From: Xylographa opegraphella
Lineage: Eukaryota
DNA: 64,000 bases
Assembly (NCBI GenBank): GCA_022813865.1
Contig: JALDZX010000004.1
Span: 620,001 to 684,000, forward strand
Reading direction: 5' to 3'
Both the position numbers and the translations under genes were made by a program. Below the pieces are notes generated by a model. The model saw only the letters and a program-made list of their open reading frames with translations, was not told the origin of the DNA and made no database searches. Within the stretch, counting starts at the first letter, position 1. Every line of letters begins with the position of its first letter. Shown one piece after another: positions 4,208 through 50,361 of the stretch.

Positions 4208-4952
4208 TTACCCGTATATCAATTTGAAGACATCGTTGAATACAAAATAGCTCCCTTGGTCTGGCATAAGTTGAAAAACTTGGGTATAGTTCATTGATCG
4301 CTGTTCCTCGTCCACCTGTGTACAATTAGCTCCGAGCAACTGCCCATCTAAGGTATACTGACTAGAAGTGCGCCTGTGACAAGTACCAGTATGCCGCCAC
4401 TCTCGTTGGAGGGTTGTGAATCGAGTGTCATGACTTGGTGTTTGATTTGTGAAAATGGCAGTGTCTGTCCACCATGTTAGCGACCAGAATGGCATATTCT
4501 TACTTGAAAAGAGCGCATATACTGTGAGTTTCTCGATTATACCTGTAACACCCTGAACAGCGGCGGTTTCAAAGGTGAGCATGGAGTGGTCACGCTTCGA
4601 AGTGGTCAGTATTCTGCGACTTCCCATTCATTGGATCCGTCGCCACACATACGTAAAGTGCTGCTAAGTTTTGCCGATTTTGATCGAAGGTTTGGTAATA
4701 GAACTCCACAAATTGTTCTGCGGTCGGTTAATCGGGCTGGCAGCTGCGGCGGCGCTACACGGCGCTTCAGAGCCATCGACGGAGCTCTTAAGACTTACGA
4801 GCGATGGTAGAGAAGTCTATGAGATCGCGTCAGCACTCATCATGTCAAAGCTTTACAAGACACAGCCTCAGGAATACAAGGCTTCCATATGCAATTCACG
4901 AATTCAATGGATATACATCTATATTTACGTGAAGACTATACGTACCAGCCAT
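4208..4952 (-). CDS. NTF2: Nuclear transport factor 2 (6 exons, including 7-nt and 18-nt coding exons)
   Basis: Spliced product MA|DFSTIA|QQFVEFYYQTFDQNRQNLAALY|RDHSMLTFET...|TLPFSQIKHQVMTLDSQP...|VDEEQRSMNYTQVFQLMPDQGSYFVFNDVFKLIYG; canonical splice sites. Confidence 0.95.
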
Positions 4953-5189: not shown

Positions 5190-5600
5190 CCCTCTGAGAT
5201 CTGTTACAGCAGGTACTTCGTAGAGCATTAGCATACAACGCATGGCAACCATGTCTGCTAATGCTGCACTCTATTTCAATTTGAAAGGGCCAAATAACCT
5301 CAAAGTGAGTCCACAATCGCTTTCATACTTCCTATTCATAAATACATGATGACCTCTACTTCTAAACGATAACTTCTGATCAACATGAAGTAACAAACCA
5401 ATATTCAAGCTCAACAGTCTGACAACCCATTCAATAAACTTCTATGTCGTTGCATTCTATCGGAGCTGAGAACTGATAGTGTATCATACAGATGTTTGTT
5501 TCATTCGTGGATTGCGGCAACTGATTAACCTCAGATCCTTTCTTGGAGAATGACAAGTTGTCGCAGAGGTCTGCGCAAAATTATTCAACCGACGATACCA
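5190..5600 (+). ncRNA. Putative non-coding, spliced snoRNA host transcript (ends uncertain)
   Basis: TATA-like TATAT near 5147; introns 5213-5287 (GTACTT..GCTAAT..AAG) and 5305-5491 (GTGAGT..ACTGAT..CAG) flank a 17-nt exon; no meaningful ORF. Confidence 0.55.
5342..5425 (+). ncRNA. Box C/D snoRNA with two rRNA guide elements, intron-encoded
   Basis: Box C ATGATGA 5346-5352; D' CTGA 5376-5379 preceded by TAAACGATAACT (complement of 18S AGUUAUCGUUUA); box D CTGA 5419-5422 preceded by TCAAGCTCAACAG (complement of 25S CUGUUGAGCUUGA); rRNA sequences recalled from memory. Confidence 0.88.
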
Positions 5601-5967: not shown

Positions 5968-7184
5968 CTAACCCTTCCGCCGAAGATCTAAAATCTCCGA
6001 AAGTTTCACTTCTCCTTTGCCACCCCATCCAGCCACTCCACTATCGACATCCGGCCTAACTTGGATATACCACGACCATGACCTACGGTCGAGGTCCTCC
6101 ATTCTTATGTACCGTGCCCAAGAACTGTATAGTAGATCCAGCGCAGCAAGCAACAGCGCCAAATTTCGCTCCTTTTCAGCAGGCGTGTCCGACTTTTTCT
6201 TGGAGTTGCCTTTGCCTTCCATTGTTGATGACTTGGAACTAAAGGACTTCATCAAGTAAGCTCTCGCGGACTGTGCAGTGTAGATTGGAAGATCTCCAGT
6301 GGTAGTTTCAGTATGTGAGGCCTTGCTCGACGAGCGCATAGACTCAAGGTCCAAGCCCCACAACGCAGGCTCTGTCTCCGCTTGTCCTATGTTCGTGCTT
6401 TGGGACACAACAGCCTGGCTGGACTCACTCGCCGGTTTTTGGTTGAAAAGGGATTGTTGAAAACCAGGCACTTGATTGGGAGCGTCTGCACCCTCGTCGG
6501 CATGATATCCCCAACGTTTGAGAGTGTGTATTTCACGGTTCATGACCTTCACCTTTGGTTGGCCAAGCCCCCACCCATCTTCTGCAGCGCTGGGCCCCTT
6601 TTCCAAGCCGATACTCACAGCTTTGCTTCTACTGTTCGCACTGACAACCGCTTGAGCGAGACTCAGTCGAGATGATAGTGGCTGGCTGGGCATCGTATAC
6701 TTGAGCAATGTCACAGCAAATGCCAATACCAACGGCGCTCGATTGGTGTAAAGGCTGACTTTGATCAGATCTTCAATTTTGGCATCGACAGTGGGGAGAG
6801 CGAGCGACTGTTCTATCGCTGCAGGAGTCAATATCTCTCCTCCCGATATTTTTTTAATTCGTTTCACGGGTGACGCTGACGAGGCATCCGAGGATTTCCT
6901 TTTCTTCGATACCCTCTTTGCGGCACTGATAATTTGCTTCGCCGTCTTTTCGTCATGGAAAATGTCTGCAATCGCCTTGACGTCTGCAGCTGCCAACTCG
7001 ACGATGCTGATCGCGTCGATTAGAGCTCGATCATGACAAGGCTCCCATCCGCGAAGTGGCTACCATACCTAGCTAGATTGGCCTTTTGAAGGTCTTTAAC
7101 CTTAGGCAACGCAACTTGCAAGGGAATTTTAGCATCTTGTGTGAAAAATCGCAAGATATCCTGTAGTCCAGACTTAGTCGTCAT
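5968..7184 (-). CDS. Conserved fungal hypothetical protein (2 exons)
   Basis: Exon 1 MTTKSGLQDILRFFTQDAKIPLQVALPKVKDLQKANLA then a GTATGG donor; long exon 2 with TNRAPLVLAFA, SRLSLAQAVVSANS and WYIQVRPDV..GWGGKG blocks. Confidence 0.75.
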
Positions 7185-13629: not shown

Positions 13630-16046
13630 TCATCCGTCCAAACGCACGGTATCTTCCATTGGTTCGCCCTCCCCTCCTAGCTCCTGCTCGACCTCCTCTA
13701 CAACGAAGCCCTCATAGTCCTCCAGACTCTTCTGGATATGCACCTTGAACTTGATAATATCGTTGAGCATTCGCTCGATTTCTGTATGCAACTCTTCCCG
13801 AAGAGCGTTTGCTCGCAATGTCAATTGTTCGTACCTGCCGAGCGCTGATTAGTGGATGATCTGGAGACACGTGTGAGCACATACTCGATGTTGGTGTTCA
13901 TCTCTCTCTGTTCCATAAGCTGCACACTTTCCGTAAGGCCGGAACGCATCTTAGCAAGTTCTTTCTCCATCTTCTCTATCTGTGCGTCCGAGGCAAGTTT
14001 CTGGGTCGTTGTGACCTTGGAGGATGATTAGCATTGATTCCCTATACTATTTTCCAAACATACTTCTTTAGTCTTTTCAAATTCCTCTTCTCCCGCACGC
14101 ACTCTATGTTCCAAAGCAGCTACCTCGTTCTTTTTATCGTCGATGGCCTCGGAAAGCTCATCCAGTAGTCGGCGATTCTCTTCATCGTGGTCCCTAGCCA
14201 CATTTCTCCGCTTATTGATCTTTATTCTCAGACTGTTGAGCTGTTGCTTAATTGCACCTCTTAGGTCCAAGTTGAGGACTTTTGCAGGATGGTAGCCTAC
14301 TGAGCCATCAGCCAGCAGACGATCTCCGTCGCCATACTGAGAGGCGCCAAGCTGAGAGGATGAGAACGCTGGTGCATCAGTCAAAGAAAGGCGGAGTTCA
14401 TATTCTTCGCCCTTGGCGTTTGCTGCTGTTGATGGCAACAGACCCACACGATAACATAGCGAATTATACTCGTCGACTGCCACCTCGAGGTCTGCAAGTT
14501 TGTTACCCGCTTCTGCTTCCTTCTCAGCGACTTTTCGACGCGCTTCTTCAAGCTTTAGCTTGGCAGCTTCAAGGCCTTTCTGCAGTCTTTCTCGTTCGCC
14601 ATTCATCCTATCGATATCTTCTATAGAGATTCCCTGTTCGTCTACTGCTTTTTGTAGCGCCTTTTTCTCTTGCAATGCACTGCGGAGCTCCTCCTCCCAA
14701 TTCTCGATGTCCTTTCTCAGATGCTCGTTCTGTGTCTCAAACTTGTGAGTTTTTTTCTCGCCGTGTGGAACCCATTCTTCGAACTTTTTGATGTCATCAA
14801 CAAGGATTAGATGAGCTTTGTCCAGCTTTGCATTATCTGGAGTATCTCTTTCGGCCTCCTCAATCTGCTTCATGAGTGCTGCATTGGCAGCCTCAAACAT
14901 TTCCAAGTCTTCCGCATATGCCTTATTGCCTCGGTCAAACTCCGCGGCCATGGCTTCTACATGGGGCTGCAACTGCTGCTTGAAGTCCTCTTCATCTGCT
15001 TCCGGATCGTCGCTAGGCGTACTGGACAGGAAGGCACTGTAGGCACCGCCTAAGAACCGAAATATGATCCTATCACCGCTTACATCTACACCTGCTTGTG
15101 CACAGGCATCGTCGAAGTCGCCACGTTCATACCGCTCTAGCATCTGGGCCAGCTGCATGATCCAATGAAGCATACCAAGAAAGGTCGGCCAAGTATTTGC
15201 TGAACCTACTGCAGCAATTTGGCTTTTGCTAATACTTTTTTCGTAAGGATATCGCAATTGCTTCAGAATGGGAGGGACCTCTGTAGCGATATTCTTCTGG
15301 AACCGATAAGCGGGATCGATACGGTGATACAGCCATTGAAACATATACTCGAAGTCTTTTTGTATGGGAGATCGGATGTTGACGATCGAGTGCTTCATTT
15401 CCATCTCAAAATTGTTCTCGGTCATATATGCTAGAAGCTCCTCTGCCATAGTGTTTTGAGTAGCTCGATCTTTCAGCGGTCGTGGATCCTTTGGCACTCC
15501 GGCCGGTACTGGAGCTTGTACAAAGAACGATTGATGACCCATAGGCCCAGATGTGGAAGGACGAGAGTATATGCTGCTACGTCGTTGCAAGCTTTGAGAA
15601 GCGCTCATAGCCTGTTGCGTGTGTGGTGTCATAGCGCTGCCCGGTGCATAGCTCATACGACTGGACATATTTGTAGCGAAGAGATTCGTCGAGGAACTTC
15701 GCTGTGCAGTGGACGGCCGCCCCATATCAGCAAGATTCGTACCCGACGACGAACGCTGGAAAGCAGGTTGAGGAGGTCGATTTGGTGCAAAAGACATCCG
15801 CGATGAGGATGCGGAGCGTCCATGGTGAGTGGTATGAGGCGGTTGTATTTGTGATTCTTTGATATTTGAGATAGAACTTGAGCGCTTGAATGCGGAGGCA
15901 GGTTGTGGAATTGCGGAATTGTAATTGAGGCTTCCAAGAGTCTGATCGCGTAAGAGTTAGCATTTCAAGTCCTGGTATTATCTTTGTACATATTTACATA
16001 CTTCTCTTGGCCGGCGCACGCTGAACAAGTGCGTGTCTTGCGACAT
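13630..16046 (-). CDS. NDC80: Kinetochore protein NDC80/HEC1
   Basis: Starts [15 protein letters not shown] (ATG 16046); CH domain ([36 protein letters not shown]); long coiled coil; several introns. Confidence 0.95.
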
Positions 16047-50268: not shown

Positions 50269-50361
50269 CGACGTAACTAGGATTTGAACCTAGGCCCCCG
50301 AAGGGATATGATACCAGAGAAGGTTTCTAGTCATACGCAATAACCACTCTGCCATCACGTC
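50269..50361 (-). tRNA. tRNA-Ser(AGA) with 12-nt intron
   Basis: Acceptor stem GACGTGA/TTACGTC, D arm TGGCAGAGTGGTT, anticodon stem TATGA/TCATA with CT-AGA-A, intron 50313-50324, long variable arm CCCTTCGGGG, T arm CTAGG-TTCAAAT-CCTAG, G discriminator. Confidence 0.95.

Follow-up and report, generated by a model that had tools for sequence, protein, structure and literature searches.

A short stretch of DNA next to an NTF2 gene of Xylographa opegraphella raises the question of whether it encodes a small nucleolar RNA (snoRNA) and, if so, which nucleotides of the ribosome that RNA would modify. We addressed this question within a window of 64,000 nt, which is the whole stretch of DNA that was analyzed. 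A sequence-only reading of the same letters had proposed an unannotated box C/D snoRNA with two guides, one directed at 18S and the other at 25S rRNA. In our analysis, the snoRNA, both of its guides, and the 25S target stand, whereas the equation of the 18S site with Um121, the novelty of the snoRNA, and the restriction of the 25S site to fungi do not. The explanation that we favor, and regard as quite probable on the combined comparisons below, is that the locus carries an intron-borne box C/D snoRNA of the Nc CD20/snR88 family, with a D guide predicted to act on 25S U2410 and a lineage-restricted D' guide predicted to act on 18S U110.

The anatomy of the element is clear from the window letters, and our script reproduced all of the box and guide coordinates of the sequence-only reading on the + strand. 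The mature snoRNA, with approximate ends that were set from the boxes, the guides, and the extent of blastn similarity, spans positions 5341-5427 (+ strand). Box C (ATGATGA, 5346-5352) is followed by the D' guide TAAACGATAACT (5363-5374), a single T, and box D' (CTGA, 5376-5379). A C'-like box (ATGAAGT, 5385-5391) completes an internal C'/D' pair and agrees with UGAUGA at 4 of 6 positions. Next come the D guide TCAAGCTCAACAG (5405-5417), again a single T, and box D (CTGA, 5419-5422), all on the + strand. The distance from box C to box D is 77 nt (5346-5422), which bears out, with exact positions, the description of an ATGATGA box and two CTGA boxes within about 80 nt; the elements of 12 to 13 nt that had been placed one nucleotide before each CTGA are present as well. 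As a box C/D snoRNA we considered an RUGAUGA near the 5' end and a CUGA near the 3' end, 60 to 120 nt apart, and as a guide at least 10 nt of rRNA complementarity ending 1 to 2 nt before box D or D'. The spacing lies within this range, and the complementarity extends over 13 nt for the D guide (N. crassa 26S) and 12 nt for the D' guide (18S of the fungal-type contig L170). Boxes and complementarities together support the earlier view that the element is a box C/D snoRNA and that both of its guides complement rRNA, and to judge from the sequence, this is a genuine box C/D snoRNA gene.

A terminal stem was not apparent. At best, 1 of 4 pairs could be formed, none was present in the minimum free energy (MFE) fold, which was no better than shuffles (z -0.83), and the 24 related loci among the matches listed (classes A and B, described below) showed no obvious terminal stem either. 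Such stems are dispensable in many intronic snoRNAs. The MFE fold contains a different pairing, between UACUUC (5357-5362), just 5' of the D' guide, and GAAGUA (5387-5392), a stretch that shares letters with the C' box; several of the class-A homologs among the matches listed also have ACTTC and GAAGT.

The boxes by themselves are weak evidence. Because the 64-kb window contains 13 RTGATGA...CTGA pairs at distances of 50 to 140 nt, three of which use the box C at 5346-5352, the box arrangement alone is within reach of chance. It is the guides that carry the weight of the snoRNA call. With L171, one full-length fungal-type 18S, as the reference, the whole window contains two CTGA-adjacent 12-mers that are complementary to 18S, compared with a mean of 0.17 in 200 shuffles. 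Both fall at the snoRNA site (offsets 0 and 1), and there are none elsewhere in the window. The guides are beyond chance because this count exceeds that of the shuffles and because the D guide is letter-identical to a published snoRNA. One might still suppose that short motifs came together here by chance, or that the element is an intergenic snoRNA copy that has decayed and is not expressed, and the frequency of box pairs would agree with this, as would a sequence with neither a terminal stem nor a significant fold. We consider this very unlikely in view of the 18-nt identity to a cloned snoRNA, a conservation that ends with the snoRNA across 11 distinct homologs among the matches listed, the intron-like placement in all 24 related loci among the matches listed, and the shared position next to NTF2 in another locus (L069). 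A second ATGATGA...CTGA pair, also spanning 77 nt, lies in the 5' region of NTF2 (4767-4843, - strand). It can form only 2 of 4 terminal pairs, and next to its CTGA there is no stretch of at least 10 nt that complements the L171 18S; this pair is probably due to chance.

Rfam does not place the snoRNA in a family. At gathering thresholds, the whole window returned nothing at the snoRNA, the sole match being a tRNA gene at 50269-50361 (- strand; RF00005, 47.3 bits), which has an extended variable region and, in the anticodon-loop region, a 16-nt insertion that is probably an intron. A permissive scan of positions 5250-5520 yielded box C/D matches below threshold only: snosnR61 (RF00476) at 15.8 bits versus a gathering score of 45, SNORD18 at 14.6 bits versus 41, and snoZ107_R87 (RF00360) at 13.9 bits (E 2.8) versus 50. 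We rejected membership in snosnR61, since the score is under the gathering threshold and only the boxes align while the guides differ; snR61 itself guides 25S Am1133. Membership in snoZ107_R87 was rejected by Rfam's own criterion. In the Rfam check that had been suggested for this locus, no family is reached at gathering score; the family to which the snoRNA belongs is already known from Neurospora and S. pombe. A scan for bacterial-type promoters and terminators showed no enrichment, and such signals are irrelevant in a eukaryote.

It is the D guide that reveals the family. Together with its spacer and the D box, it forms UCAAGCUCAACAGUCUGA (5405-5422), which is identical at 18 of 18 nt to the printed sequence of Nc CD20. 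This snoRNA (EU780944) is a 75-nt intronic RNA of Neurospora crassa that was seen by cDNA cloning and northern blot (Liu 2009, PMC2780460), and its printed 3' end reads ...UCAAGCUCAACAGUCUGACa (Liu 2009, Additional file 1, PMC2780460). In the same study, Nc CD20 is the predicted guide of 26S-Um2372 through a 13/0 duplex at box D, which is printed with the N. crassa 26S as 3'-AGUUCGAGUUGUC-5' (Additional file 4, PMC2780460). The study names homologs in S. pombe (snR88) and A. thaliana (snoR58) and gives none for S. cerevisiae or human (PMC2780460). The methylation of N. crassa U2372 is given as a prediction, and the primer-extension figures cover CD11 and CD29 (PMC2780460). On this identity of letters, the window snoRNA is an ortholog of Nc CD20/snR88 and a new member of a known family. 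Its D guide and predicted 25S target are already known, because the guide is identical to that of Nc CD20 with its published target. The kind of snoRNA is not new; its 26S target was published in 2009.

The position of the 25S target can be stated with some precision. The D guide is complementary to 25S/26S CUGUUGAGCUUGA, a segment that had been named in the sequence-only reading and that does stand in N. crassa 26S (Liu 2009, Additional file 4). At the fifth position of the guide, A5414 pairs with the U after CUG in 25S. On the contiguous CUGUUGAGCUUGACUCUAGUUUG of N. crassa lie two adjoining targets, Um2379 of Nc CD2 (the snR66 homolog) and Um2383 of Nc CD5 (the snR78 homolog) (PMC2780460), and yeast snR78 guides 25S-2421 (Canzler 2018, PMC5824354; also in a plant review table). 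Because the snR78 target is yeast 2421, the offset on the shared segment makes N. crassa U2372 the equivalent of yeast U2410, which confirms the approximate position given in the sequence-only reading. Likewise, because yeast Um2421 equals Arabidopsis Um2422 in the plant review table, the site corresponds to Arabidopsis U2411. There, U2411 is 2'-O-methylated by RiboMeth-seq and is assigned to SnoR29 (PMC8053127), and the plant review table gives Um2411/2413/2413 in three plants, without a human or yeast counterpart. The suggestion that the guide combination may be specific to filamentous fungi accordingly does not extend to the 25S site.

Other published snoRNAs were compared with the window. 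The two double-guide families that Canzler 2018 (PMC5824354) reports from Pezizomycotina were rejected by their targets, which are 18S-Am154 and 26S-Gm2875 for Nc CD17 (PMC2780460) and 5.8S-Gm75 and U2-Am32 for AM921920/Afu-191. Table 1 of the A. fumigatus snoRNA paper (PMC2377427) contains no matching target, and neither guide was matched in four supplementary files for T. rubrum (PMC3890542). Under the Liu naming scheme, the family in Canzler 2018 (PMC5824354) would be called CD_20. The main text of that paper is without CD_20, snR88, 25S-3604, or an 18S site near 110; its supplementary tables may list such a D' target. In literature text, the guide-plus-box strings were not found, and the 13-mer of the D guide alone occurred only in unrelated papers. 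Our literature search also found no fungal mapping of methylation at 25S U2410 or 18S U110.

The D' guide points to a second ribosomal site. It is a perfect 12-nt complement of 18S 107-118 in L170, which is fungal in type and not the species' own 18S. The 5' end of 18S is complete in this contig (model positions 1-443 of Rfam SSU_rRNA_eukarya, 423 bits) and reads ...UUAAAUCAGUUAUCGUUUAUUUGAUAG, with AGTTATCGTTTA occupying 18S 107-118. The 18S complement put forward in the sequence-only reading, AGUUAUCGUUUA, is present at these positions. The numbering is fixed by its agreement with the N. crassa 18S, which is printed as 5'-UUAAA-Psi105-CAGUUAUA-3' (Liu 2009, Additional file 5, PMC2780460). 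The fifth nucleotide before box D' (A5371) pairs with U110 in fungal numbering, which is U112 in the plant type. From the location of the complement and the fifth-nucleotide rule, U110 is the predicted target of the D' guide.

A different identity had been proposed for this site, namely, that of vertebrate Um121, which would make the window snoRNA a fungal counterpart of SNORD4 (Z17) with a methylation homologous to that of human 18S. SNORD4 is the name of the guide for human 18S Um121, and the Us addressed by the two guides would both lie in one 5' region of 18S. The positions do not coincide. Arabidopsis Um123 is equated with human Um121 in a plant review, and in plant-type fragments such as L137 the D' target is U112 while position 123 is the last U before GAUGG; generally, the Um121/Um123 position is the last U before GAU(A/G)G. 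The analogy fails because the D' target sits 11 nt 5' of this site, and no SNORD4-like Rfam match appeared in the permissive scan of 5250-5520. We therefore regard homology with Um121 as refuted by position and scarcely conceivable.

Our 18S references came from a scan of a prokaryote genome collection with the NS1 18S primer, which returned at least 53 contaminant eukaryote-type fragments, 45 of them long enough to judge; the same scan of viral contigs gave 0 matches. The at least 53 contigs concerned (L118-L170) are filed as bacterial or archaeal and carry eukaryote-type 18S 5' regions, many plant-like and several fungal-like. They are eukaryotic contamination in prokaryote genome records. 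Among the 45 fragments, 6 have AGTTATCGTTTA at the D' site and 7 have AGTTATAGTTTA, a C113A-type variant that would give one mismatch in the D' duplex. We know of no 2'-O-methylated nucleotide (Nm) at the equivalent of 18S U110 in yeast or human. The Arabidopsis Nm sites tabulated in the plant review include none at 18S U112, and the N. crassa predictions, in the tables of PMC2780460, include no 18S U110 site. A literature search on 18S-Um109 to Um112 gave unrelated matches and one plant review only.

Homologs show how widely the two guides are shared. A search of metagenomes for the D guide joined to its D box (TCAAGCTCAACAGNCTGA) returned at least 117 loci. Since 17 specified bases were searched against a very large collection, mostly chance matches are expected, and most of the loci are indeed chance matches in GC-rich coding DNA. 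TGATGA occurs no more than 120 nt upstream in at least 32 of them. Class A, with the same D' guide as the window, comprises at least 13 loci, at least 11 of which are distinct (L037, L070, L072, L110, L108, L073, L049, L011=L068, L100, L098, and L069=L117). Class B has a different D' guide, TTAAGAACGGCCA followed by A and CTGA, and a C' box (ATGTTGA) as in Nc CD20; it comprises at least 11 loci, at least 10 distinct (L001, L016, L020, L021, L022=L059, L053, L088, L097, L107, and L109). The complement of the class-B guide, TGGCCGTTCTTA, lies at 18S 1272-1283 of L171 (L171 1501-1512), with C1275 as the fifth-nucleotide target. We take this C to be the one next to the conserved Gm of yeast 1271. 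Among the matches listed, D' regions are degenerate in L038 and L015/L084. Five further loci among the matches listed (L024, L045, L071, L090, and L113) have a form of about 50 nt, in which TGATGA, 23 nt, the same 25S guide, CTGA, and a G run follow one another; these loci may represent a snoRNA of very small size with a single guide, from some other group of eukaryotes. L038, L015/L084, the five short-form loci, and chance TGATGA matches (such as L028, L033, L052, and L082) were left out of the alignment.

Conservation among the class-A homologs is selective. Across the 11 distinct ones among the matches listed, identity to the window is 0.94 for the D' guide, 0.93 for box D', 0.99 for box C, and 0.79 for box C', while in the same comparison it is 0.42 to 0.63 for the spacers and 0.27 to 0.35 for the 5-nt flanks. 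The invariance of the D guide and D box proves nothing, because the search pattern demanded both. Beyond the element, the flanks of these homologs could not be aligned, and in a blastn comparison of the window with 11 loci among the matches listed, similarity was confined to the snoRNA stretch of about 78 to 80 nt, at 76 to 92% identity. The D' guide is well conserved, correctly positioned, and restricted to part of the family, and this pattern makes a functional 18S guide likely.

An alternative is that the locus encodes a real CD20/snR88-type snoRNA in which only the D guide methylates, the D' pairing having a chaperone or docking role on pre-18S rRNA or being unused. N. crassa CD20 works, if at all, without a D' guide to 18S, there is no Nm at the equivalent 18S position in the Arabidopsis table or among the N. 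crassa predictions tabulated in PMC2780460, and D' boxes are degenerate in some homologs (ATGA and CCGA among the 24 related loci, in the matches listed). Yet many functional guides have a degenerate D' box (Liu 2009, PMC2780460), and the duplex of the window stops exactly one nucleotide before a canonical CTGA, in the fashion of a methylation guide. Furthermore, the D' guide and box D' are conserved together among the matches listed, and the C'-like box is conserved too. On balance, we think it unlikely that the D' guide has no part in methylation, and we retain the reading in which it is directed at U110.

Variation within class A bears on the pairing as well. The D' variant of L073 (...GATAATT) keeps the pairing through a G-U at 18S G108. 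The D' guide of L098 is TAAACTATAACT; its complement AGTTATAGTTTA stands at the D' site in the 18S of L125, as it does in 6 others of the 45 fragments. The N. crassa 18S reads AGUUAUA at the D' site (PMC2780460). These differences hint at guide-target covariation at 18S position 113, and do no more than hint, since none of the loci can be paired with an 18S of the same organism.

The surroundings of the snoRNA suggest that it is intron encoded. A putative host intron of 187 nt (5305-5491, + strand) begins with GTGAGT (5305-5310), contains a branch-like CTGAT (5473-5477), and ends with AG (5490-5491). The branch-like A5476 lies 54 nt after box D, and the 5' splice-like site lies 41 nt before box C. 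A similar layout is found in the relatives: among the matches listed, CTRAY 50 to 70 nt after box D and then YAG occur in all 24 related loci, and a GTRNGT-type 5' site 33 to 111 nt before box C occurs in 15 of the 24. Splicing is the reading that this motif layout favors. The host transcript is probably noncoding, because the spliced exon frame would give only about 31 residues and the exons are not conserved in relatives among the matches listed. This transcript would be divergent from NTF2, with the snoRNA upstream of that gene, which is represented by two exon-sized open reading frames (ORFs) at 4208-4727 (- strand; Pfam PF02136, E 8e-8 and 5e-6). In L069, tblastx finds the first coding exon of NTF2 on the opposite strand, upstream of the snoRNA, and the NTF2-snoRNA arrangement is thus common to at least one other fungus. 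The other neighbor of the snoRNA is a 363-aa ORF (5968-7059, - strand) with no Pfam match at E 0.01 or better. Farther away, an NDC80 ORF (14031-15956, - strand) is 94% identical to proteins of Xylographa soralifera and X. trunciseda in a protein search, which sets the window within or close to this genus of lichen-forming Lecanoromycetes; a protein atlas assigned the same ORF to Ascomycota only.

Under the explanation that we favor, the snoRNA would be released from the spliced and debranched intron of a probably noncoding host transcript and trimmed to the snoRNP core of Snu13, Nop56, Nop58, and fibrillarin/Nop1, as is generally known for intronic snoRNAs. The box D guide would then pair with 13 nt of 25S rRNA and place the U after CUG at the fifth position for 2'-O-methylation, that is, U2410 of yeast, U2372 of N. 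crassa, or U2411 of Arabidopsis. The box D' guide would pair with 18S 107-118 and place U110 at the fifth position. This second function would be lineage restricted: the D' guide is present in this Lecanoromycete-like genome and in one group of homologs from environmental fungi, another 18S guide takes its place in a second group, and N. crassa lacks it.

If so, the family may have a history of its own. We tentatively suggest, while holding it somewhat less probable than its contrary, that CD20/snR88 kept an ancient 25S guide and swapped its D' guide within ascomycetes, so that one lineage, to which this Lecanoromycete-like fungus belongs, methylates 18S U110. On the same reading, the D' guide seems to vary together with a C/A polymorphism at 18S 113, its target in a second lineage is the C beside the conserved Gm of UGGCCG (18S 1275 of L171), and the D' guide was lost in Neurospora. 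If this is true, Um110 of 18S would be a ribosomal modification that is not yet described and is peculiar to one lineage, and its gain and loss could be placed in time on the fungal tree. A family with alternative D' guides would also be a compact, testable example of how guides turn over and covary with their targets. To our knowledge, 25S U2410 is not methylated in budding yeast; since the 25S segment is methylated in plants, the family would be a marker for a modification lost in Saccharomycotina. We are aware of almost no curated snoRNAs for lichen-type fungi. More immediately, a lichen-type fungal genome gains a snoRNA gene with correct coordinates, and two rRNA 2'-O-methylations are predicted for it. 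The general understanding of box C/D snoRNAs is unchanged by it.

Comparison with known systems sets the window snoRNA in context. Vertebrate SNORD4/Z17 is likewise of the box C/D type and directed at a U of the 18S 5' domain, but its target lies 11 nt 3' of U110, and we saw no sequence relation. The antisense element of the D guide recurs, as AAuAUUCAAGCUCAACAG, in the consensus of the plant snoZ107_R87 (Z107/R87), but the rest of the 117-position model fails to align with the window snoRNA. Arabidopsis SnoR29, which is responsible for 25S Gm2410 and Um2411, acts on the same 25S segment, and Um2411 is the homolog of the D-guide target (PMC8053127). Its guide, however, is a D' guide with G2410 at the fifth position and U2411 at position 6 (PMC8053127), whereas the D guide of the window snoRNA puts the U itself at position 5. 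The closest counterpart is Nc CD20, which is similar in size (75 versus 77 nt), is intronic, as the window snoRNA would be in its putative intron, has the same order of parts, and shares CUUCU..AAAC in the stretch before the D' guide. The differences lie in the D' half. Where the window carries TAAACGATAACT, the Nc CD20 sequence before box D' is CUUCUUCAAACAACUGA, which is no complement of 18S; the C' box of Nc CD20 is AUGUUGA, as in the class-B homologs, rather than ATGAAGT. The predicted function at 18S U110 belongs to the window type only.
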